A stretch of 64,000 bases of DNA from a virus (lineage: Duplodnaviria > Heunggongvirae > Uroviricota > Caudoviricetes), in the IMG/VR virus record IMGVR_UViG_3300024345_000775, positions 25,144-89,143 of that record. One strand, given 5' to 3'. The position numbers and the translations under genes are program-made. Under the pieces are notes generated by a model that worked only from the letters and a program-made list of their open reading frames with translations, was not told the origin of the DNA and ran no database searches. This document shows positions 24,438 to 59,786 of this stretch, in pieces. Every line of letters begins with the position of its first letter. The stretch's first letter is position 1.

Positions 24438-25699
24438 TACATAAATAATTGTTCTCTCATTAAAGGTTCCATATTAATCCACATATTGCGAGTTACAGGA
24501 ATCCTTCTGAAACCAAAGATACATCCTTCCTCACAAGTATCAATATAATCTGCAATTACATTAACTTGTGCATCAGTAAGTTTCTTCCAAGTAGCAGGAT
24601 GTCTTTCATCCCATCTGCCTTCAAACAACACCCAACCATTATGAAACTTAACCCAACCTTCCTTCTCTAACCATCTGTCAGATTCAGAAGCATAAGTAAA
24701 TTTCATATCATACTTTTCTGCTATTTTATCAGCAATTTTACAGTGTAGCATGTTGCTTATCTCACCATTCATTGCAAACACCAGACCATCTGGATTTATC
24801 CATCCAGCATCATATTTGTCTTTAATGTTTACAGGTTCAATAGCACCCATCTTAGCATAATCAAGTTCAGCAGCTATAAAAGCCTTAATTGAATCTTTAA
24901 CTTGGTCTCTTTCACTAAAATCAGAACTGATATAGTAATCAAACTTTATCTTCCAATCTACCATTTGATTTTCTAACCAAGGCTTTACACCAGCATCTAC
25001 TCCAAGTTCTTGTAACAGAATTTCATTTACTTTGTAATAGTGTATACAATCAAGTCTATATCCTAAAAGGAACTTCATTTGATAGTATAACCTTCTAAAT
25101 TTTTCATCATCACAATAATCTAGTAATGCATCAGTAAATAGAAATTCAGGAGTTTCAAGACTAGTTAAAGCTGCTAATAGCTTCATTGGAGTAAATCTAA
25201 CATAAGCACCAATCTCTATATTAAGATTTGGTAACTTACAGTCATAACCACACAGTAAACAAATTTTCTCAAAGTTATCCTTTTCTACTTCTACTGTCAC
25301 TGAATCATTCCTACAGATTTCCAGATTGTTCCAAGCTACTTGTAAACTACCACTTTGAGAAGTCTCTTTTAACTTGTTTACTTTTTCAGTAATCCAATTC
25401 TTAAAATCAATAGGAGTAAAATCAGGAAATTCCTCAGGACTATATTTACCTATACTAACTGTACAATCATTATTGCCTACTACAGCCAGTTCTCCTAGAA
25501 GAATTCTTTTTACCATTTCTAGTTCAATTCCTCTAAAACTCTTTAGATAGGTATCTATACATCCTTGATAATTTGCTTTTTGTAACAGTTTCTCAGTTGC
25601 TATATCATACAGGATTTCTCCTATATTAGTTCCAACAGTAAAATGTAATTCACTCATATATACATTAGTTTTGTAGGTTCTAACTGAGCTACTGCACAA
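24434..25699 (-). CDS. hypothetical protein
   Basis: 421-aa ORF. Confidence 0.5.
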   Translation of the reverse strand: MCSSSVRTYKTNVYMSELHFTVGTNIGEILYDIATEKLLQKANYQGCIDTYLKSFRGIELEMVKRILLGELAVVGNNDCTVSIGKYSPEEFPDFTPIDFKNWITEKVNKLKETSQSGSLQVAWNNLEICRNDSVTVEVEKDNFEKICLLCGYDCKLPNLNIEIGAYVRFTPMKLLAALTSLETPEFLFTDALLDYCDDEKFRRLYYQMKFLLGYRLDCIHYYKVNEILLQELGVDAGVKPWLENQMVDWKIKFDYYISSDFSERDQVKDSIKAFIAAELDYAKMGAIEPVNIKDKYDAGWINPDGLVFAMNGEISNMLHCKIADKIAEKYDMKFTYASESDRWLEKEGWVKFHNGWVLFEGRWDERHPATWKKLTDAQVNVIADYIDTCEEGCIFGFRRIPVTRNMWINMEPLMREQLFMY

Positions 25700-36147: not shown

Positions 36148-36651
36148 CTATTCTTTTGGCAACTGCCAAATCTCAATAGTAATATCAAGGTTTTCAAATG
36201 CTGCTAGAACCATAGAATGTACTACATTCCAGTTAGCACCACCTCTACAAGAACTCATGAGATAAGGCATTGCAATTGTTCTTATTTTGTTTTCTTCACA
36301 GATTTTTGCCAATTTAACTAGGCACATCCACAAAGCATCATAACTTGTAGGACATCCTATACTCAAGAAAGAATGCTCTTTTTGGTATAAGTCTTGAGCA
36401 CACAAATTTGCAATGTAAGGATAGTTTGGTTCTTCCTGTCCTTCTACACATTGTTCATGCTCAACAACCTGTACAACACCTAGTTTAAGGCCACCTTGTT
36501 GCATAAGAACAGTGTATTGTTCTTGTACATAAGGCCACTTGTGTGCAATAGCAGCAGCAACTCCACTCCCCATTACACCAGCATCATTTACTTGGTGCAT
36601 GATTATCTGTGCTTCTGAATCTAATAGATTTCCTGTCCGATTAACTACAGT
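36148..36651 (-). CDS. Macro domain protein (ADP-ribose binding/processing)
   Basis: IMHQVNDAGVMGSGVAAAIAHKWP matches macro-domain NAxN...GxGVaxAI block. Start chosen at MTVVNRTG to reduce overlap with nadD. Confidence 0.7.
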   Translation of the reverse strand, partial: TVVNRTGNLLDSEAQIIMHQVNDAGVMGSGVAAAIAHKWPYVQEQYTVLMQQGGLKLGVVQVVEHEQCVEGQEEPNYPYIANLCAQDLYQKEHSFLSIGCPTSYDALWMCLVKLAKICEENKIRTIAMPYLMSSCRGGANWNVVHSMVLAAFENLDITIEIWQLPKE

Positions 36652-37273
36652 CATATAGATGATGTTTTTGAATATAATCAGCAACATATTTAGGAACAAG
36701 TGTTTTCCATTCTGGATTACACTCATCAATACATTGTCTGATATAGGTTGAACTTATATTAGAAGGAATTTCTGACATTTTAGTAATACTTCTAGCTAGA
36801 GTTAATCCCTCAGGAACTTTCATTTCAACTCCTTCTCTAGGTATTACTACAATATCAAACTGATAAAGTATGTCTTTAAAACATGCCCATTTAGTTATTT
36901 GTGCAAGACAATCTGCACCTATAGCTAAATCAATGGAATAATCAGAATACTTAAGAGATAGATGCTTTAGGAAATAGTAAGTATATTGAAATAATGGCGA
37001 TGCATTACTATCAAAGATGACTTCTACTCTTTCATCTCCTATTACTCTTTTTATAGAAGTTGCAGCCATTTCAAATCTGTCTGCAAAACACACATTAAAC
37101 TCCTTAAAAGGACTTGCAAAGCTTGGAGCTACAATTACCTTATTATAATAGTACATACCATTGGTATCTCTTCTATCTAAGAGCATTTGTATTGCTTCTA
37201 TATGTCCATTATGTATAGGATTGAAAGAACCTCCATATAAGACAGCTCTTCCTCTTATAGTTCTGATTTCCAT
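36641..37273 (-). CDS. nadD: nicotinate(-amide) mononucleotide adenylyltransferase NadD-like
   Basis: GGSFNPIHNGH (HxGH nucleotidyltransferase motif of NadD) and C-terminal ISSTYIR (SxT-IR motif). Confidence 0.8.
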   Translation of the reverse strand: MEIRTIRGRAVLYGGSFNPIHNGHIEAIQMLLDRRDTNGMYYYNKVIVAPSFASPFKEFNVCFADRFEMAATSIKRVIGDERVEVIFDSNASPLFQYTYYFLKHLSLKYSDYSIDLAIGADCLAQITKWACFKDILYQFDIVVIPREGVEMKVPEGLTLARSITKMSEIPSNISSTYIRQCIDECNPEWKTLVPKYVADYIQKHHLYDCS

Positions 37274-37842
37274 TGTTTTAAATCCTCTAAATTAACTCTT
37301 CTAAATATCTCTCCATCTGGAGATGTAATTTCAGGAAGCCAAGTTCTGAACAATATCTTAGCATTTAACTCTTCAGCAAAATGTTCAATTGCCCTCAAAC
37401 TAATATCAGTTTCAGTAACATAGTTAGCTCTATCTTCTTGTTTTAAAAGAACATATAGTCTATTACTACATTCTGAAATCCTCAATCTAGCTCTTGTATT
37501 GTGTATAAGTTCTTGTAATGCATCCCAATCTTTTTTACCTTTTGGACAAATGGAAATTCCAGTTATACAAGGTAAGGTATGTTTTTTCAAGTAATAGAGT
37601 AACTCATAACCTGAAGTATAAACATAGATATTCTTAGCAAAAGAACTTATTACATTTACAATCCCATAAAGATTATCTAGAAGAAAAGGTTCACCACCTG
37701 TTAAACAAACAGTTTCCACTGTAGACAACTCCTCTTTTGTTATAAAAGGAATACTGTCTACAGTGTAGTTGTTGTTACAGCACATAGGACACTGATTAGT
37801 GCACTTGTCTGTAAGAAATAGATGAGCTACTTTTGGGTTCAT
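37255..37842 (-). CDS. small radical SAM enzyme (paralog C)
   Basis: HLFLTDKCTNQCPMCCNNN (CX3CX2C) and LTGGEPFL; shares LTDKC-x3-C block with rSAM 12404-13351. 195 aa. Confidence 0.65.
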   Translation of the reverse strand: MNPKVAHLFLTDKCTNQCPMCCNNNYTVDSIPFITKEELSTVETVCLTGGEPFLLDNLYGIVNVISSFAKNIYVYTSGYELLYYLKKHTLPCITGISICPKGKKDWDALQELIHNTRARLRISECSNRLYVLLKQEDRANYVTETDISLRAIEHFAEELNAKILFRTWLPEITSPDGEIFRRVNLEDLKQWKSEL

Positions 37843-38315
37843 GGTACAAAACTCCTAATTAGTTCATAATGTCCAAAAGCCCAATCATACTCACCTGCTT
37901 TAGCTACTGGTATCCACATAACTTCATCTACCTCATCTGGTTCACAATGCTCTTTAGATAACATCTTCACAGCAGGTGAATCAGAACCAAGATATGCAGT
38001 AAATTTTACTGTTAAGTTTTGTCTACCTTCAGGTACATCATCTATACCTGCAAATTGAAGTTTATCAGCAGGTACAAGAACTCCTGTTTCCTCATAAACT
38101 TCTCTTATAATAGCTGTTTTGAGGGTTTCATCATAATCTAGGTATCCACAAGGACAAACCCATTTACCAACATTATCAGGACAACCTGGTCCTCTCTTAT
38201 TTGCAAGAACTAACCAATTTCCTTGACTATCTTTGGTGAAGATGAAACCTGCAACTGCTACAGACCTACTTATCCAGTAGGTTTTTCCTTCATGTTCTAC
38301 TGGAAAATTTCTCAT
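37839..38315 (-). CDS. Nudix hydrolase
   Basis: Complete Nudix box GYLDYDETLKTAIIREVYEETGV (Gx5Ex7REVxEExGV). Confidence 0.8.
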   Translation of the reverse strand: MRNFPVEHEGKTYWISRSVAVAGFIFTKDSQGNWLVLANKRGPGCPDNVGKWVCPCGYLDYDETLKTAIIREVYEETGVLVPADKLQFAGIDDVPEGRQNLTVKFTAYLGSDSPAVKMLSKEHCEPDEVDEVMWIPVAKAGEYDWAFGHYELIRSFVP

Positions 38316-39493
38316 AGACCTAATTTATAAATAGCAGTTTTTACTTCCTCATCTGCTCCCATTACTTTACCAATGTCATCAGAAATCTTTACACAATTTA
38401 CCCATTCTTGTCTTGGGTTCATTCTGCAATGCATTAACTTCATGACAATATTTCTAGGCTGTACACCTTCAATATCATTGGTAAGATTAGTGCCTATACC
38501 AAAGGAAGCTTTTATCTTTCCTTTACAGTATTCAGCAATTTGAGCAGCTTTTGGAAAATCCAAAGCATTAGAGAACACTATAGTTTTTGTGAGTGGGTTG
38601 ATACCTAACTCATCATATCTAACTAGTGCTCTCTCAACAAAGTCTTTCTCATCTCCAGAATCTTGTCTTATACCATCAAACAATTTTGCATGTTGTAAAG
38701 AAAAATTCTTGAAAAAGACTTTAGAAGTATAGGTATCAGTTAAAGCAATACCAAGATTGCCATCATAAACCTTTACCCAGTTTTTATATGCCATGTAGTT
38801 AGCCTCATTGTAACCATACATAGCACCATGAAACATTACCCATTCATGTGCTACAGTTCCAATAGGTTTCATGTCATATTTCATTGCAAGATGTACATTT
38901 GAAGTACCGACGCAGGATGTAGAGTTCTTACAAACAGCTACAACTGTATCTTGTACTTCATAACTATATCTTCTTCTGGTACCAAACTCAGAGAATTTAA
39001 ATCCTGCTTCTTCAGCAATCTTACATTTCTCTTCAGTTTTTCTACATATCTCTTGATACTGGTCAACAGTTAGAGATTTACCATAGATTTTATAGTATGT
39101 TTCTGCAACTGTATAGAGAATAGGTACCTCATACAGAGTAACTTTATAAAGTTTATCTGTAACTTCAATCTTCAACTCACCATCTTTCTCAAGGGAAAGT
39201 TTAATTAAGTTTGGATTAAAATAGAAAGACTCTAACCATTCCCAATACCACTCAGGAATGTATGGTATGTTTTGTACACACCATTGTCTCTCTGCATTAG
39301 ACAACATTCTTTCTGCCAGTCTATGTAACTCTTGTTGCAAAGCGGTTACAAATTTAGCAGTATACTCTGTTTTACCTCTATCACAGAAAACAAATGTACC
39401 CTCTGCTTCAGGAAATAACTTCATATAAGCATAGCTCATGCTAAACTTATAGAGGTCATTATCCAACATACTTGCAGGGTTTATTGCTACCAT
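38312..39493 (-). CDS. pncB: type II phosphoribosyltransferase, nicotinate PRTase (PncB)-like / possibly NAMPT-like
   Basis: N-terminus MLDNDLYKFSMSYAYMKLFP...FVFCDR parallels PncB LDTDAYKLHM...FRCR; 393 aa. Confidence 0.65.
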   Translation of the reverse strand: MVAINPASMLDNDLYKFSMSYAYMKLFPEAEGTFVFCDRGKTEYTAKFVTALQQELHRLAERMLSNAERQWCVQNIPYIPEWYWEWLESFYFNPNLIKLSLEKDGELKIEVTDKLYKVTLYEVPILYTVAETYYKIYGKSLTVDQYQEICRKTEEKCKIAEEAGFKFSEFGTRRRYSYEVQDTVVAVCKNSTSCVGTSNVHLAMKYDMKPIGTVAHEWVMFHGAMYGYNEANYMAYKNWVKVYDGNLGIALTDTYTSKVFFKNFSLQHAKLFDGIRQDSGDEKDFVERALVRYDELGINPLTKTIVFSNALDFPKAAQIAEYCKGKIKASFGIGTNLTNDIEGVQPRNIVMKLMHCRMNPRQEWVNCVKISDDIGKVMGADEEVKTAIYKLGL

Positions 39494-40371
39494 AATATCA
39501 CAACCTTTTCAATTTCATGAGAATATATCCCATTTGTTGTAAACAATTTTGTTACATTACTTAGAATGTATTGCCAATTCTCTGTATTATCTTCTATAAG
39601 TTTATTCTCACAGTGGGAAGCATATACATAAATTGGACAATTCACTTTTTCCCTGATATTTGCAATAGTCTTACAGATGGTACCACCTGAGGATAATATG
39701 TCATCAATAATCAGAACAGGAATACCTGTCTCCAATGTATCTACTCCATATAGCTCCTGGTCTTGCAAAGTGCCAGTTTTCCAGTCTCTTGATTTGTTTC
39801 CTATTACCTTTCTAAAAGGCTTTAAGATTTCAAGAGAACTGTATCTATCATAAGCACCTCTATCAGGAAATACAATTGTAACCTTACTGAATTTATCATC
39901 AAACATCCCACTATGTATAACATCAAGGGCTTCTTTCAATGATACATCAGTTGGTATTTTACACATCCTATCAACTAGAGCATCAGTTACTTTTGAATGA
40001 GTATCAAAAACTGTTACACTTTCAAACTGTAAACTGTTAATAACATTGCAGAAATACTTAAGGGTAAAGACATCTCCTCTTTCTTCTACTCTGTCCATTC
40101 TAGCATTAGGAACATACAACATTTCCAGAGATATAGTACAGTCTTGATAATTATCTCTGAGATAACCACAAACAAATATCAATGTGACTAATTCTTCATC
40201 ACAATGATACTTCCATACTATATGAAAAGCATTTACACCAAAATCTGGCATATTTATCTTTTGAGTACCATCCTGGAAATGTTCTACCTTTACAGGTATT
40301 TTGTTGACGAAAAGCATTGAATAATTATGTAGATTATAAACATTAAAACAACTAAAGTTCCAGTAATCCAC
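39487..40371 (-). CDS. ribose-phosphate pyrophosphokinase (PRPP synthetase)-like
   Basis: PRPP/ribose-binding loop VLIIDDILSSGGT; 294 aa; 7-nt overlap with the PRTase gene. Confidence 0.6.
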   Translation of the reverse strand: MDYWNFSCFNVYNLHNYSMLFVNKIPVKVEHFQDGTQKINMPDFGVNAFHIVWKYHCDEELVTLIFVCGYLRDNYQDCTISLEMLYVPNARMDRVEERGDVFTLKYFCNVINSLQFESVTVFDTHSKVTDALVDRMCKIPTDVSLKEALDVIHSGMFDDKFSKVTIVFPDRGAYDRYSSLEILKPFRKVIGNKSRDWKTGTLQDQELYGVDTLETGIPVLIIDDILSSGGTICKTIANIREKVNCPIYVYASHCENKLIEDNTENWQYILSNVTKLFTTNGIYSHEIEKVVILW

Positions 40372-40499
40372 AAAGGACTAAATACCCACCACCAATTCCA
40401 ATCAATTTTCTCTGTCACCTTAGCAATAAAGAAAGCAATTGTTAAAATAAGTGGAAGATTGAAACTTATAGTTATATTTGTTTTAGCATTTTCACTCAT
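40290..40499 (-). CDS. small membrane protein
   Basis: 69 aa, two hydrophobic helices. Confidence 0.3.
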   Translation of the reverse strand: MSENAKTNITISFNLPLILTIAFFIAKVTEKIDWNWWWVFSPLWITGTLVVLMFIIYIIIQCFSSTKYL

Positions 40500-40574: not shown

Positions 40575-41126
40575 TCAAATAATGTTTATGTGGCAGCTTC
40601 TCATTGTCTCAATAGCTGCCTCTTTCTTTTCAGGAGTTACACCTGCTGTCAGTCCTTCATAGACATACACTTCTGAATTAGGGTATAATGTCTTGAGAAC
40701 AAGAGCATTGGTAACAACACAAATATCAGTACAGAATCCTACTAAATAGAACTCTCTTATTTCTGACTTATCTGAACCAATTATTTGTTCCCAATTGTTA
40801 TAACCAAATGTATGTTTGTTTATAAACTTTTTAGGAACTTGACAATTGTCAAGAGCTTCCATAATATCATCTCTTAGACACCAACCAGCAGTTTCACATA
40901 TACAATGTAAAACAGGTAAATGTTTACCTTCTACTGTGACATCATAAGATTGCCTATAATGAGTATCTCTTGTAGCAAGAATATAGTCAAAACCTTTTTC
41001 AGAAATAAGCTCAGGTAATGTTTTAGCAATGTCTTTTGCAATTGCAATAGACTCTTTATTTGCCAAAACACCACCTTGTGCACAGAAATCATTTTGACAA
41101 TCAATCAAAATAAGAACCTTTCTCAT
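40575..41126 (-). CDS. pncA: nicotinamidase PncA (isochorismatase family)
   Basis: N-terminus KVLILIDCQNDFCAQGG matches PncA LLLVDLQNDFCAGG with catalytic Asp; later Cys in ICVVTNA. Confidence 0.75.
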   Translation of the reverse strand: MRKVLILIDCQNDFCAQGGVLANKESIAIAKDIAKTLPELISEKGFDYILATRDTHYRQSYDVTVEGKHLPVLHCICETAGWCLRDDIMEALDNCQVPKKFINKHTFGYNNWEQIIGSDKSEIREFYLVGFCTDICVVTNALVLKTLYPNSEVYVYEGLTAGVTPEKKEAAIETMRSCHINII

Positions 41127-41968
41127 TGGAATCTTGGGTCTTTAGCCATACCTAGAGACATTATCTCTACATTGGTAGGCTTTTCAGTTAAGTCAAACAA
41201 CATTTCAATTTCAGGCCAGAAGCAAGGCATACTTGCCATTCTATAAATCTTGAACTTGTTTGCTTCAAACTTTTTGTTAATCTTTTCAATTACTTCAGCA
41301 CTTCCTTCACCTTCTCTGATATAGGTGTCTATATCTTTGTAAGTGATTCCAAGTGTTTGTTCATCAGATGTACCAACAAGTCCATCTTCAGGAACTTTCT
41401 CAACAAGTTCAGCAGGAAGTCCAAGTTCATGTCCAATAGCTTTTACTTCTTGTACAGTAAGCATACATAATGGTGATACATCTCCTGCACTATCTCCATC
41501 AACAGTTGCATAACCAACCCAGTCTTCAGATAAGTTAGAAGTGTTAATCAATCTGCCATTATTTGCTTGTGCTACATATCTTAACATAGTCATCCTAATT
41601 CTAGGAGCTAAGTTAATTCTTGCTTGCTCAGTTACTTCATTAAGAGTATTGTGTACATTTGCCATCTTATATCTATCCTGGAATTCTTCAAAGATAGTCC
41701 CAATAGGAATAGACAGGTTCTTGATTCCAAGAGTTTCACACACTTTCTGTGCTATATTGAAATCATGTTGAACACCATTTGGCAACAATACACCTATGAC
41801 TCTTTCAGCACCTAAAGCTTTTACACAGAGTGCTGCTGCAATAGTAGAGTCTTTACCTCCTGATATACCTATTACAGCATTACATCCTGGTCCATTTTGT
41901 TCAAACCAAGATTGTAAATACTTTATAAGAGCTTCAGTTGTTTCTTTAGCTAAAAACCTATATTTCAT
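41123..41968 (-). CDS. nadE: NH3-dependent NAD+ synthetase NadE
   Basis: PP-loop GISGGKDSTIAAAL (SGGxDS), 281 aa. Confidence 0.8.
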   Translation of the reverse strand: MKYRFLAKETTEALIKYLQSWFEQNGPGCNAVIGISGGKDSTIAAALCVKALGAERVIGVLLPNGVQHDFNIAQKVCETLGIKNLSIPIGTIFEEFQDRYKMANVHNTLNEVTEQARINLAPRIRMTMLRYVAQANNGRLINTSNLSEDWVGYATVDGDSAGDVSPLCMLTVQEVKAIGHELGLPAELVEKVPEDGLVGTSDEQTLGITYKDIDTYIREGEGSAEVIEKINKKFEANKFKIYRMASMPCFWPEIEMLFDLTEKPTNVEIMSLGMAKDPRFQ

Positions 41969-42032: not shown

Positions 42033-42629
42033 TTAAAGGATAAAAGAAGCACAGGCCAGCACACCATCCTGGTAACGCTTGCTACCATTGTCCCAGAGAG
42101 CATAGTCAGCGTAACTCTGGTACACATACCAGGCATTAGACTGGTATCCTTCTCTAGCAATACTACTCCAATAATAACCATATCTGATTACTGGAATACC
42201 CATTACTAGATAGCATTTATTTATTTCCTCTAACCAATTGTTAAAGAATACCATGTTAAGTTCTATCTTACTAGGAACATACCATCTACCTTTACCAATA
42301 GAACCATAACTTAAGTTAAGTGCTCCTTGTGCAGCAGGTGAACCTTTAAAATAAGAGAAAGGTTCTCCTTGAACAGTATATTCTTTATCTTTTAGAACTT
42401 CATGCATTCTTAAAGTAGCTCCAAGACCACTGATAGTTTCCACATCAGTAATGAGTCTTTCATTACTTCCAGGAACTCCCCAAGCAGCTCTAAATGGAGG
42501 AGCAGGTGGTAATATAATACCATAATCATCCTTCATTACAAGAACTCCTTGAGGTTCTCTGTAGTCTTTCCACTGACCCCGCTCAAAGGGTTCCATATAA
42601 GTGTCTAAACAGAAAACACCACTTCTCAT
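42033..42629 (-). CDS. hypothetical protein
   Basis: 198 aa, 4-nt overlap with rSAM B. Confidence 0.45.
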   Translation of the reverse strand: MRSGVFCLDTYMEPFERGQWKDYREPQGVLVMKDDYGIILPPAPPFRAAWGVPGSNERLITDVETISGLGATLRMHEVLKDKEYTVQGEPFSYFKGSPAAQGALNLSYGSIGKGRWYVPSKIELNMVFFNNWLEEINKCYLVMGIPVIRYGYYWSSIAREGYQSNAWYVYQSYADYALWDNGSKRYQDGVLACASFIL

Positions 42630-43525
42630 ACATCTTTTTGCCAGATTGGCTCTTTGTGAAAAGAACTTTTTGTTATTTTTATAGGATTTCCCAAAATTAA
42701 ATTCTTTGAGAAACTCTCAGGAGGATACAACCAGCATTTGATTTTATTTTGTTGTTTAAGTAAGTCATAGAAATGTGCTCCAAAAGCTATTTTAGACCAA
42801 TTTAAATTTTTACTTAACAAATACTCAAATTCTTCTTGTGTATATTTGCAAACACTTCTACCAGAAGGCATAAGTGGTAATAGAACAAAATACAATATAT
42901 CATTTACATATGGATATACTTCACTGACAAATTTGTCAACAGAAGCTTTATCTGAAATTATGTAATGAATGTTAATGTTAATGTCTATACCTTTTAAATT
43001 ATCAACAGCTTTCTTCCAAGTCTTATTGATATTTTCATTCCAAGTGTTTGCACTTACAGCTACACCACCACAGTACTTCTCTGTTGCTTCCAACAATTCT
43101 TTATTGTCTTCAGAAGCTAGAGTTATACCATTGGTAGTGTAGTTAGGTACTATTCCTAAGTTATATATAGTTTGTAAGAAAGGAATGAATTCAGGATGAA
43201 TTGTTGGCTCACCTTCACTCCCTATTGCTATTTGAAAAGGTTTGGAATTTTCATCCATCTCTCCAAAGAACTTTTTTGCTTTCTCACATACATCCTTATA
43301 GAATACACCTGTATGTAATGCATTAGTATAACAGAAAGGACATTCTAGATTACACTTAGTACCAAGACTTACATCATAAAACTCAGAACAGATAGGTGGT
43401 AACTCTTGAGCTACTCCTTGTCCTAATCTTACTGTTTTTAGATTTTGCCATATAGCATTATAGTTATATTCTGAAAAATTCCTCTGTTTAATACCAAAGT
43501 GAGTAAAATCTTTCATAATTAACAA
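42626..43525 (-). CDS. radical SAM enzyme (paralog B)
   Basis: DVSLGTKCNLECPFCYTN (CX3CX2C) and GSEGEP; alignable with rSAM A over the cluster region. Confidence 0.65.
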   Translation of the reverse strand: MLIMKDFTHFGIKQRNFSEYNYNAIWQNLKTVRLGQGVAQELPPICSEFYDVSLGTKCNLECPFCYTNALHTGVFYKDVCEKAKKFFGEMDENSKPFQIAIGSEGEPTIHPEFIPFLQTIYNLGIVPNYTTNGITLASEDNKELLEATEKYCGGVAVSANTWNENINKTWKKAVDNLKGIDININIHYIISDKASVDKFVSEVYPYVNDILYFVLLPLMPSGRSVCKYTQEEFEYLLSKNLNWSKIAFGAHFYDLLKQQNKIKCWLYPPESFSKNLILGNPIKITKSSFHKEPIWQKDV

Positions 43526-43962: not shown

Positions 43963-44555
43963 CCTAAATGATACCTTTCTGCTACTTCCATTAACTTTTC
44001 TTGATAATCCCAATTAGGATTCTCATCCTTAGAGAACAAAAGAATTCTGTCACCATTCTTTTCTCTTAACATAGAAAGTCCAGAATCAGTTATTTGAGGA
44101 TACCACCACATATTAAGAGAACCTCTGAATTGTTCCATATGGTGTGGTAAAAACTTCTTATAACAATCATCTGCATCTTTGTAGAAATCAGAGAATTTTA
44201 CATCAAGATTCCAATTCTTTTTAAGGAACTTAGTTATTGCAGATTTATAAGTCTTAGCTCTCTTTTTAGCATACTCAATGGGGTTTCCATCTTCTTCTCT
44301 ATAGTATGTACCATAATCCTCAATATCTGAATAAGCCATACTATAATCAAAGTAGGTTTCAACCTCTTCATCATCTGCATCTCTAAGGAGAACTGGGTCA
44401 TTATACTCAGTTGACCAATTAGGATAAATACTATCAAGAATTGCTATTACTTCTGCAACAGTATTTTTATTGTCAAAAACAAACAGTTCACTAGAACTAT
44501 TAGTAATAACATCAGAAATACTTTGAATATTAAAAACAAATAATGTCTTTTTCAT
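43959..44555 (-). CDS. TNSSS-motif family protein, subfamily B (paralog 4)
   Basis: FVFNIQSISDVITNSSSELFVF. Confidence 0.5.
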   Translation of the reverse strand: MKKTLFVFNIQSISDVITNSSSELFVFDNKNTVAEVIAILDSIYPNWSTEYNDPVLLRDADDEEVETYFDYSMAYSDIEDYGTYYREEDGNPIEYAKKRAKTYKSAITKFLKKNWNLDVKFSDFYKDADDCYKKFLPHHMEQFRGSLNMWWYPQITDSGLSMLREKNGDRILLFSKDENPNWDYQEKLMEVAERYHLG

Positions 44556-45004
44556 TTGTTTAAAAATTCTTGTACAACTTCTGCAACTAATTTGCCATCA
44601 GCATTAGGAAGTGAACCTTTTATTGTTTTGATAATGACACCCATGTTCTTCTTTACAGGCTCAAAACCATCTTGTCCAATTACATCATTGAAACATTTCA
44701 AAATGTCTTCCCTAGTTGCTTCTACTGGTAAAAACTCTTTAAGAACTTTAAGTTGTGCTTCTTCTGCCTCAACTAAATCCATTCTATTAGCCTGTTTAAA
44801 TTGCTCAATAGAATCCTCTCTTTGTTTTACCATTTTCTTGATGATTTGAATTTCTACTTCATCAGTAAATGGTTTATTAACATTTTCTTTCTGAGTTCTC
44901 CATAATAAGAAAGCAGCTTTAATTGCTCTTAAAGCCTCTTTTCTTACATTCTCATGAGACTTCATAGCCTCCATGATAAGTTTATCAATTTGATTATTTA
45001 TCAT
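44552..45004 (-). CDS. YqeY/GatB C-terminal-like domain protein
   Basis: 150 aa; pattern ALRAIKAAF...TDEVEIQIIKKMVKQREDSIEQFKQANRMDLVEAEEAQLKVLKEFLP...ADGKLVAEVVQEFL follows the YqeY/GatB_Yqey consensus. Confidence 0.6.
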   Translation of the reverse strand: MINNQIDKLIMEAMKSHENVRKEALRAIKAAFLLWRTQKENVNKPFTDEVEIQIIKKMVKQREDSIEQFKQANRMDLVEAEEAQLKVLKEFLPVEATREDILKCFNDVIGQDGFEPVKKNMGVIIKTIKGSLPNADGKLVAEVVQEFLNK

Positions 45005-46212
45005 TGCTCTGCTGCTTTAAAATTATATATAGGTTTAATAATATCTACAACATCTACAGTATCTTTGATACACTCCATGATTTCATCCATCGGTTTATAT
45101 ACCATAGGTGCTTCATCAATAGTATCTTTAGTTGCTGTAGTTGTATAAATACCTTTCATTGCTTCAATAAAGTCCTCTTCTTTAAGACTTTCTTTTGCTT
45201 TCTTTCTAGACATAAGTCTACCTGCTCCATGAGGTGCAGAATACAACCAATCAAGATTACCTTTACCTATACAGATAAGAGAACCATCTCTCATGTTAAT
45301 AGGAATAATAAGCTTTTCTCCATTAAGTGCACTCACAGCACCTTTTCTAAGAATCTTATGTGGTAAATCAATATAATTATGAATAGTTGTAAAAGATTTA
45401 TCATGTCCTTCTAAGAAATCAGAAAGAAGATTAGAAAGTCCTAAGAAATCAAGAATTCTAATAGCAATTGCTCTTCTATTACAAGAAGCATATCCTTGAC
45501 ATAATCTCATATCATTAAGATAATCCTCAAGGTCTTTACCTTCAAGATATGCCAATTCAGCATTGAAAGGTGATTGAGTTGCTTTAATTTGTGCAAGAGT
45601 AGCATTGATTTCAGACTGTCTTCCTTGTTCTTTAAGACTGTTAATAATTTCTATAAAATCAGTTCTCTTTGCTTTACAACTCTTTATAGCTTTTTCTTGA
45701 TAATACTTACATACTCTTACACCAAGATTTCTACTACCAGTATGAATTACAAGAAATTTTTCATCATTTTCATTTATATCAACTTCAATAAAATGATTAC
45801 CTCCTCCAAGACTACCAATAGACTTTAAAGCCATATCAGCATCTATAACTTCTTGACATTTAAATTGAGTAAGTGTACTAGGATGATAAAAACTTTTACC
45901 AAGAAACTGTTCATTGATATTGAATCCAGAAGGTATTTCAGTTTTAATGAAATTATCTAGAGCTGCTAAATCAATCTCAATATTACCTAAAGGAACAACC
46001 AACATTCCACATCCTATATCTACTCCAACTGTATTAGGTACAACTCTATCTTTAATACCTATTACAGTACCAATTGTACATCCTGCACCTGCATGACAAT
46101 CAGGCATTATTCTTACAGGACATTCTCCATAAGCATCAGATAAAGACATGTTTTGAATTTGTAACATTGCCTCATCTTCAACTGTTTTTGCATATATTTT
46201 TACATTTTTCAT
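45001..46212 (-). CDS. rtcB: RtcB RNA 3'-phosphate/2',3'-cyclic-phosphate ligase
   Basis: MPDCHAGAGCTIG, GGGNHFIEV and SAPHGAGR, the three RtcB metal/GTP-binding signatures; 403 aa. Confidence 0.85.
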   Translation of the reverse strand: MKNVKIYAKTVEDEAMLQIQNMSLSDAYGECPVRIMPDCHAGAGCTIGTVIGIKDRVVPNTVGVDIGCGMLVVPLGNIEIDLAALDNFIKTEIPSGFNINEQFLGKSFYHPSTLTQFKCQEVIDADMALKSIGSLGGGNHFIEVDINENDEKFLVIHTGSRNLGVRVCKYYQEKAIKSCKAKRTDFIEIINSLKEQGRQSEINATLAQIKATQSPFNAELAYLEGKDLEDYLNDMRLCQGYASCNRRAIAIRILDFLGLSNLLSDFLEGHDKSFTTIHNYIDLPHKILRKGAVSALNGEKLIIPINMRDGSLICIGKGNLDWLYSAPHGAGRLMSRKKAKESLKEEDFIEAMKGIYTTTATKDTIDEAPMVYKPMDEIMECIKDTVDVVDIIKPIYNFKAAEQ

Positions 46213-46735: not shown

Positions 46736-46780
46736 CCTCAAGGACCAGTGGACCTACTGGGAGTCGAACCCAGGTCCAAC
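46736..46780 (-). ncRNA. tRNA-like minihelix (T-arm + acceptor-like stem) followed by CUGGUCC motif; candidate tRNA-mimic / Y-RNA-like module
   Basis: Minus strand reads GGACCUGGGUUCGACUCCCAGUAGGUCCACUGGUCCUUGAGG. Canonical T-loop UUCGACU on CUGGG/CCCAG stem stacks on GGACC/GGUCC; no 5' acceptor strand or D-arm nearby. Confidence 0.35.
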
Positions 46781-47293
46781 AATATCAACTAATAGGAAAC
46801 TTTACATGCTTAGTTCTTTTTAATGTGGTTACTTTACCCACAGGGGCTAATTGGTTTGGCAACTAGCCACTCCACCACTTCATTTATACTTTGAAGAAAG
46901 TTAAATGTGTCTTTCCACAATGTCAATTATTTTCTGTTTCCAGGTATAATTACCCAGGTTATGCCATAATAAGCTAGTTTACAGTTAAGTAAGCCTAAGC
47001 TTAGGCAACCAATCTAACAGGTCTTCTTCTGCTAGCATTTATTTTTTGTACCGTAATTTAGAGCAGTACTCTCTTTGCATGTTCCCATTAATCATATAAT
47101 GCTGTCAAAACCAAATAGGCCCTAATAAGAAAGAGGATGAGGTATTAACTCCACCCTCTCCTATTGTAAAAAGGGGAGAAAAAGAGCAAAGTATTTTTCA
47201 GTTATTGGCAAACCATGACGCTAATTATAGAAGTAACTTTACACTGACATCCCCTATGGGAAAAGCAGGAGAAATAATATAGAGTGTTTAAGG

Positions 47294-59631: not shown

Positions 59632-59715
59632 TGTAGTTTATATACTTTTTAGTAATATAGATTCTGTGAGCACATATCTGTTTTGTTTGTGAGTCTAACC
59701 CCACTCTCACCAAAG

Positions 59716-59786
59716 GAGTATATGAAGGACTTGAACCTCCGACCGCTACATCTCTGTAGTGCTCTACCAACTGAGCTAATATACTC
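59716..59786 (-). ncRNA. tRNA-like RNA lacking an anticodon loop (anticodon arm replaced by 5-bp stem + GAGA tetraloop)
   Basis: Minus strand 5' G-AGTATAT-TA-GCTC-AGTTGGTA-GAGC-A-CTACA-GAGA-TGTAG-CGGTC-GGAGG-TTCAAGT-CCTTC-ATATACT-C 3'. Acceptor, D-arm and T-arm are textbook; region 27-43 is a 14-nt tetraloop hairpin instead of the 17-nt anticodon arm. Confidence 0.5.

Follow-up and report, generated by a model that had tools for sequence, protein, structure and literature searches.

Does a phage gene for a phosphoribosyl pyrophosphate (PRPP) synthetase-like (Prs-like) protein, when it is joined to a gene for a type II phosphoribosyltransferase (PRTase), always encode NAD+ reconstitution pathway 1 (NARP1)? 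The question is raised by 64,000 nucleotides of a Caudoviricetes record (IMG/VR record IMGVR_UViG_3300024345_000775, positions 25,144 to 89,143). We call this whole stretch the window, and coordinates are counted from its first letter. NARP1 consists of Adps and Namat (Osterman et al., 10.1101/2024.02.11.579819); the former pyrophosphorylates ADP-ribose to ADP-ribose pyrophosphate (ADPR-PP), and the latter condenses this with nicotinamide to rebuild NAD+. An initial annotation of the window suggested that its Prs-like and PRTase genes could be such a pair. We find that this suggestion holds for one of the two genes. The Prs-like protein groups with phage Adps, and the PRTase has the features of PncB, the nicotinate phosphoribosyltransferase. 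Both genes belong to a nine-gene operon that, with a probability that we put at roughly one half, rebuilds NAD+ from nicotinamide and ADP-ribose, the products of NADase defences, by way of PRPP and the Preiss-Handler route.

The two genes are minus-strand open reading frames (ORFs) that are both present in the ORF list of the window. They are real genes and not chance ORFs, given the strength of their family matches (PHROG 619 at 2e-54 for the Prs-like protein; the NAPRTase Pfam model at 8e-60 and TIGR01514 at 4e-122 for the PRTase). The longest Prs-like ORF spans 39487-40371 on the minus strand and begins at a GTG. In the gene calls of two identical metagenome contigs the start is an ATG at 40317, and the resulting protein of 276 residues (P0001) is the one used here. 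The initial annotation was right about the two overlapping ORFs, about the phage context and about the motif VLIIDDILSSGGT, which is found at residues 201-213 of this protein.

The PRTase gene

The PRTase gene (38312-39493, minus strand) encodes 393 residues. The protein combines PF17767 (NAPRTase_N) with PF04095, has no PF18127 (NAMPT_N), and scores above the cut-offs of two PncB equivalog models (TIGR01514, 408.2 against 269.55 bits; NF003704, 417.7 against 379). The structure of a Porphyromonas NAPRTase (PDB 2im5) aligns with residues 8-393 at an E-value of 2e-112, with gaps of 1-3 residues, and E. coli PncB is 34% identical over the full length. A GTVAHE motif starts at residue 212 (GTQAHE in E. 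coli PncB); the His of this G-T-x-A-H-E motif is presumably the one that is autophosphorylated in Salmonella PncB. When the protein is set against the PncB family as a whole (TIGR01514; PDB 2im5 and 1yir), the only differences that we detect are its location on a phage and the overlap of its gene with one of the Adps family.

Namat (PMC12774641) is a poor match by comparison, having only the type II PRTase superfamily domain PF04095 in common with the window protein. No BLAST match between the two was better than E 0.003. The SCH clamp motif GSxΦxΦxΦTRD, searched for with a regular expression, is present in the Namats of KoopaTroopa, FelixO1, Staph MSA6 and MAG1 and absent from the window PRTase, which is also about 100-200 residues shorter than the Namats of six phage genomes (439-593 residues). 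A hidden Markov model (HMM) of Namat found no NAMPT-type ORF in the whole window. Relatives of the PRTase occur in only 21 phage records, and none of them is a Namat; the PncB of MT835470, a 117-kb human gut phage scaffold, is 56% identical. Identity as a Namat failed on every feature tested.

The PRTase is, as predicted from these features, a bona fide and ordinary host-like PncB. Because the partner of the Prs-like protein would then be a normal nicotinate phosphoribosyltransferase, we predict that the pair in the window is not the Adps and Namat pair of NARP1.

The Prs-like gene

The initial annotation had called for a phylogeny of Prs against Adps, and it is here that its idea of a NARP1-type gene stands. 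In a neighbour-joining tree of 58 representatives, with a cellular outgroup of four sequences (three of them partial, entered from alignments), the split between cellular PRPP synthetases (PRPS) and the phage proteins has a bootstrap of 96.5%, and the Prs-like protein lies on the phage, or Adps, side. There it belongs to a subclade with 87% bootstrap. The members of this subclade are the window protein, its 81%-identical relatives (P0002 and the locus L144), roughly 50 clusters of the L003 type, which come from contigs of ~350-430 kb that are megaphage-like in appearance, and the singleton P0075 (locus L100). Wherever a member has a PRTase in reach, the partner is PncB-type.

With the Prs model TIGR01251 the protein reaches 68.6 bits, where the cut-off asks for 113; the corresponding score is 422.7 bits for E. 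coli Prs and 38-139 for six phage Adps that adjoin Namat genes. A canonical housekeeping Prs was ruled out by the HMM score and the tree position. With Adps (10.1101/2024.02.11.579819; PMC13586617) the protein shares membership of a phage-specific clade apart from cellular PRPS, the PHROG 619 family, low Prs-model scores, the catalytic Lys, and the Arg, His and Asp of the acceptor site. It is about 276 residues long, as compared with 280 for ICP1 Adps and 315 for E. coli Prs; Adps homologues are reported to be without the C-terminal helices of PRPS (PMC13586617). A tblastn search found relatives in 1423 phage records, including FelixO1, ICP1, and the Staphylococcus Kayvirus and Pseudomonas groups, and in the records opened from this set they adjoin NAMPT-type genes. 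A Namat homologue has been reported within ~10 genes for 97% of Adps (Osterman et al., 10.1101/2024.02.11.579819).

The likeness to cellular PRPS (bacterial and human enzymes of class I, archaeal ones of class III) is in the fold and the catalytic residues, with a suggestive resemblance in the phosphate loop. However, the Prs-like protein is just 14-20% identical to these enzymes, fails the TIGR01251 cut-off and branches with phage Adps, and two PRPS motifs are altered, RQDR to RMDR and HxxQxQGFF to DTHS. An AlphaFold2 model (predicted local distance difference test score, pLDDT, of 76.7) has the PRPS fold, with a template modelling (TM) score of ~0.7 in a Foldseek comparison with the PDB. The model and this comparison confirm the fold only and do not discriminate between substrates.

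In the structure of ICP1 Adps, ADP-ribose occupies the former ATP and ribose-5-phosphate sites, and the donor ATP binds a PP loop that is remodelled (Cys215-Ser220), with Phe221 and Phe223 forming a cap (PMC13586617). We mapped the donor-ATP contacts at ICP1 positions 217, 221 and 223 onto the alignment and onto all fetched loci, and the loop residues could be read in 167 of the 177 loci where the Prs-like gene is linked to a Namat gene. Among these 167, position 217 has Tyr, Arg, Lys or Gly, in rare cases Phe or Ala, and Ser or Thr in none; at position 221 there is Phe in 107 and Leu in 50, and position 223 is aromatic in 159. The same three positions are Thr, Leu/Ile and Lys/Gln/Thr in cellular PRPS, and Ser, Ile/Leu and Lys/Gln/Arg in the PncB-linked subclade. 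The window protein has Ser210 in place of the Tyr, Arg, Lys or Gly of Adps, and Ile214 and Lys216, as in PRPS, at the two lid positions; the remodelled PP loop and the aromatic lid of Adps are both missing. Its loop reads SSGGTICK, where E. coli PRPS has DTGGTLCK and archaeal PRPS has STGGTI. The resemblance to the PRPS loop (D/S-T-x-G-T and then an aliphatic residue) is suggestive, without proving which substrate is used.

Elsewhere the catalytic and acceptor residues (Arg73, His107, Asp152, Lys175, Asp205 and Asp206) are conserved. Fourteen alignment columns separate the PncB-linked subclade from the Namat-linked proteins, and only one of them, loop position 210, agrees with cellular PRPS. 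There has therefore been no broad reversion to PRPS. The Prs-like enzyme would best be described as a protein of probable phage Adps descent with a phosphate loop that resembles the cellular PRPS type.

Two scans of IMG/VR returned only Namat-linked relatives and zero members of the PncB-linked subclade. A metagenome scan contributed L144 as the one additional close relative, without any new lineage, and another large search of proteins, which started from P0075, yielded no more proteins of the Ser-Ser type. On a short metagenome contig (L162:292-1185) there is a relative whose loop, DDIITTGGTIEEC, is still closer to the cellular PRPS loop.

Gene content of related loci

The company that these genes keep was surveyed in ~220 fetched loci, all ORFs of which were searched with small per-enzyme HMMs. 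The 177 Namat-linked loci contain PncA (166), NadE (143) and Macro (79) genes, and NadD and Nudix genes were found in none of them (within 10 kb). Eight loci from three lineages are PncB-linked. All eight contain PncA and NadE, and five of them (the window, L001, L002, L003 and L144) contain NadD and Nudix together. In L004, L005 and L100 the available DNA stops soon after PncB or PncA; in L100, Pfam finds no NadD or Nudix in five unassigned ORFs near the Prs-like gene, which are a subset of the ORFs of that contig.

This distribution bears on the idea, also in the initial annotation, that PncA, NadD and NadE would be a second and parallel route to NAD+. It does not support it. NadD and Nudix accompany PncB-type partners and are absent from every Namat-linked locus (0 of 177), which argues that all of these genes form one PRPP-dependent route. 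The modules around PncB in L003, L144 and MT835470 include Nudix homologues. The last of these (MT835470.1, L104:22908-28426) has PncA, PncB, NadE and NadD genes and a Nudix gene homologous to that of the window, and there is no Prs-like gene anywhere on the scaffold. PncB and Nudix would thus function in the absence of an Adps-like partner.

The operon and a proposed route to NAD+

In the window the nine genes are closely packed or overlapping on the minus strand, in the order NadE, PncA, a membrane ORF, the Prs-like gene, PncB, Nudix, a radical-SAM-like ORF, NadD and Macro. The steps of the route that we propose for them are all inferred from sequence and gene context. The PncA-type nicotinamidase (40575-41126), which has an isochorismatase fold (PF00857, 5e-16) and a weak match to a nicotinamidase/pyrazinamidase model, would deamidate nicotinamide to nicotinate. 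By eye, its Asp9, Lys and Cys triad (TDICV) and its DxH...H metal site align with what we take to be the corresponding residues of M. tuberculosis PncA. The Nudix hydrolase (37839-38315; PF00293, 4e-16), which has a complete Nudix box, GYLDYDETLKTAIIREVYEETGV, and is a putative ADP-ribose pyrophosphatase, would cut ADP-ribose to AMP and ribose-5-phosphate. The Prs-like enzyme (39487-40317; loop DDILSSGGTICK), of the PncB-associated subclade of the phage Adps family, would pyrophosphorylate ribose-5-phosphate to PRPP, and PncB would join this with nicotinate to give nicotinate mononucleotide (NaMN). The last two steps would be the adenylylation of NaMN to deamido-NAD by NadD, a nicotinate-nucleotide adenylyltransferase (36641-37273; TIGR00482, 114.7 bits against a cut-off of 112.45; PF01467, 6e-12), and the amidation of deamido-NAD to NAD+ by NadE, an NH3-dependent NAD+ synthetase that is encoded by the first gene of the operon (41123-41968; PF02540, 3e-47; TIGR00552, 155 bits against a cut-off of 63.65).

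The last gene of the operon encodes a Macro-domain protein (36148-36654, the start site being taken from the gene call on L001; PF01661, 5e-6; PHROG 335 'phosphatase', 7e-28). It is DarG-like or ADP-ribose-1''-phosphatase-like, and its match to NF048014 (DarG), at 3e-19, is far below the model cut-off. It may feed the route by releasing ADP-ribose from modified targets or from ADP-ribose-1''-phosphate.

Two associations shape the proposal. NadD is needed only if the product of the transferase is a mononucleotide, and it is exclusive to PncB-type partners; this suggests that PncB makes NaMN from PRPP. The association of Nudix with PncB modules in turn suggests that the phosphoribosyl unit has to come from the cleavage of ADP-ribose or ADPR-PP. 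We favour, as the simplest scheme, an order in which the Nudix hydrolase acts first, because of the PRPS-like loop and because MT835470 has the Nudix gene without the Prs-like one.

Tight coupling of the Prs-like and PRTase genes was part of the case for a NARP1-type pair. The genes do overlap by 7 nucleotides, both in the window (ATGGTAG, which holds the PRTase start codon and the Prs-like stop codon) and in L144. The coupling is not kept in the other lineages, as two small ORFs separate the genes in L003 and 2.6 kb lie between them in L100. It is lineage-specific, and is therefore no argument for a hand-over of substrate between the two enzymes. Elsewhere in the operon, the NadE gene overlaps the start of PncA by 4 nucleotides. 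A promoter and terminator scan gave results at chance level only.

Competing readings

Several observations weigh against a Prs-like enzyme that makes PRPP from ribose-5-phosphate. The subclade sits inside the Adps radiation, with nesting support that is moderate (77.5%), and the verified Adps (the ICP1 and FelixO1/Bas63 types) branch more deeply than the window protein, whose substrate, on grounds of parsimony, should therefore be ADP-ribose. The tree behind this point is a neighbour-joining one with only that small and mostly partial cellular outgroup. The PRPS-like signature comprises three positions in three independent lineages. MT835470 is a scaffold and may be incomplete. Finally, searches of the PDB with a single sequence or with a profile do not decide the substrate of the Nudix hydrolase, the profile search giving weak matches to NrtR-type proteins (3gz8 and 3gz5) and to a NadM-Nudix protein (2qjt).

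The alternative that survives best keeps the same genes and the same end product and changes the order of the steps. The Prs-like protein would be an Adps that converts ADP-ribose to ADPR-PP, the Nudix hydrolase would cut ADPR-PP to AMP and PRPP, and PncB, NadD and NadE would finish the route. The place of the protein within the Adps clade is in keeping with this, as are the family motifs RMDR and D(P/T)HS that it has in common with other phage Adps-family proteins, and the co-occurrence of Nudix with PncB-type modules. Furthermore, a Nudix enzyme, NudC, turns ADPR-PP into PRPP in vitro (NARP1 preprint, 10.1101/2024.02.11.579819). However, the aromatic lid and the Tyr, Arg or Lys residue of the Adps donor site are missing, and MT835470 has a homologous Nudix without a Prs-like gene, so that the role of the Nudix would be independent of ADPR-PP. 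On balance we consider this order unlikely.

Could the operon instead be a plain set of auxiliary metabolic genes? It would then supply more NAD+ and PRPP for replication (nucleotide synthesis and NAD-dependent enzymes), in no relation to ADP-ribose recycling or NADase defences. Gut jumbo phages often have complete NAD+ pathways alongside NAD-consuming enzymes (PMC11662467), PRPP feeds many pathways and the specificity of the Nudix hydrolase is unproven. That said, the relatives of the Prs-like gene that have a recognisable context are all found among NAD salvage genes, and none among genes of nucleotide biosynthesis. PncA, Nudix and Macro proteins act on breakdown products of NAD, and recycling fits this better than a general boost does. 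A purely auxiliary role appears rather improbable to us.

The least supported reading, and a very improbable one, adapts the idea of the initial annotation: an Adps would make ADPR-PP, PncB would join nicotinate to it directly to give deamido-NAD (a NARP1 analogue built on a different PRTase family by convergent recruitment, if true), NadE would amidate this, and NadD and Nudix would be accessory, parallel or back-up; the 7-nucleotide overlap, the Adps-family membership of the Prs-like protein and its relatives in PncA-Adps-Namat-NadE modules, whose transferase seems adapted to nicotinate and makes a reaction of nicotinate with ADPR-PP plausible somewhere in the family, speak for it, but PncB aligns to bacterial housekeeping NAPRTase with neither large gaps nor an added clamp element, it is 56% identical to its counterpart in a phage without any Prs-like gene, the gene coupling is lost in L003 and L100, and NadD would be redundant, yet it is found only with PncB-type partners.

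A related module in other loci

Most relatives of the Prs-like gene belong to such a module, a compact one that joins Adps to PncA, a NAMPT-type enzyme and NadE, in some cases with Macro as well. We see it in ~170 viral and metagenome loci (L010, L017-L099 and L107-L222; e.g. L027:9481-13556 and L019:5231-9505), with no NadD or Nudix. The NAMPT-type enzymes of this module retain the Namat clamp motif. In nearly all of them the Asp that bonds nicotinamide is changed to Ala or Ser; classical Namats have Asp or Glu at this position. The hydrogen-bonding Asp is Asp215 in the SpβL1 Namat, which is taken to correspond to Asp219 of human NAMPT, and the D219S change of human NAMPT is listed as switching substrate affinity. 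The loss of this Asp, the presence of PncA and NadE and the absence of NadD together suggest a deamidated NARP1, in which nicotinate and ADPR-PP would be joined to deamido-NAD.

Neighbouring genes and phage context

Two further ORFs of the window operon have no step in the proposed route. The first, a predicted membrane ORF of 69 residues (40290-40499, minus strand), lies between PncA and the Prs-like gene, whose start it overlaps by 28 nucleotides. It has a weak Tmemb_185A match (PF10269, 1.6e-6) and figures among the called genes of L001 and L002. The second, a radical-SAM-like ORF of 195 residues (37255-37842, minus strand), has a CTNQCPMC motif (CX3CX2C), weak NCBIfam matches to the radical-SAM families HxsC, MoaA and NrdG, and matches to PHROG 31524 and 13987. 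It overlaps both flanking genes, Nudix and NadD, and is also called on L001 and L002; no ORF of this kind lies between the two genes in L003. The motif and the family matches of the ORF do not point to a role in NAD+ metabolism. Just upstream of NadE are an ORF of 198 residues (42033-42629, minus strand; a weak Lcl_C match) and a second radical-SAM protein (42626-43525, minus strand; PF04055), both of which are also present on L002.

The phage context of the window is supported by 12 tRNA genes and a transfer-messenger RNA (tmRNA) gene, by a match to a phage DNA polymerase PHROG and by the location of all genes on one strand. The window looks like part of a large gut phage. The 6-kb region has no megablast match among 50,697 phage records. 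The tRNA genes and the tmRNA gene (46748-47122, with the tag ASRRRPVRLVA) are all on the minus strand, within 16534-59785; one tRNA-like gene (59715-59785) has an anticodon that is unreadable. Near them are genes for RtcB (45001-46212) and YqeY (44552-45004). A protein with TROVE and VWA domains, possibly Ro60-like, is encoded at 17908-19524, the two matches being weak and under the Pfam cut-offs. The tRNAs, the tmRNA, RtcB, YqeY and the TROVE/VWA protein look like an RNA repair set.

Comparison with known systems and significance

The nearest described relatives of the operon are of two kinds. Clusters of the Preiss-Handler genes pncB, nadD and nadE have been reported bioinformatically in gut jumbo phages (PMC11662467). 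The window resembles these in having the three genes together on a large gut phage, and differs in that its operon adds PncA, the Adps-family Prs-like gene, Nudix and Macro; when searched by terms, that paper mentions neither Nudix nor pyrophosphokinase nor Macro. The other kind is the NAD+ reconstitution pathways. Compared with NARP1, the window has PncB and not Namat as the partner of the Adps-family gene, and NadD and Nudix accompany the pair. NARP2 of Vibrio phage KVP40 consists of Nampt and Nmnat (Osterman et al.), and is similar in being a PRPP-dependent, multi-step phage route to NAD+; the window differs from it in using the deamidated branch (PncA, PncB, NadD and NadE) and its own PRPP-synthetase-like gene. 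NARP3 consists of PnuC and NadR. In a literature search we found no paper in which PncB, NadD and Nudix are described as joined to a gene of the Adps family.

For annotation there is a caution here. Not every phage 'Prs' should be annotated as an Adps, nor every phage pair of 'Prs plus PRTase' as NARP1.

The subclade may also be of use to the study of this enzyme family. An Adps-family enzyme appears to have returned to a chemistry like that of PRPP synthetase, or never to have left it. This would provide a natural contrast for specificity towards ADP-ribose and ribose-5-phosphate, with Ser against Tyr, Arg or Lys at the loop position, and with the aromatic lid present or absent.

The depletion of NAD+ is a common antiphage strategy, and NARP1, NARP2 and NARP3 are phage answers to it that rebuild NAD+. 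The operon of the window would be a further answer, a self-contained route by way of PRPP and nicotinate.

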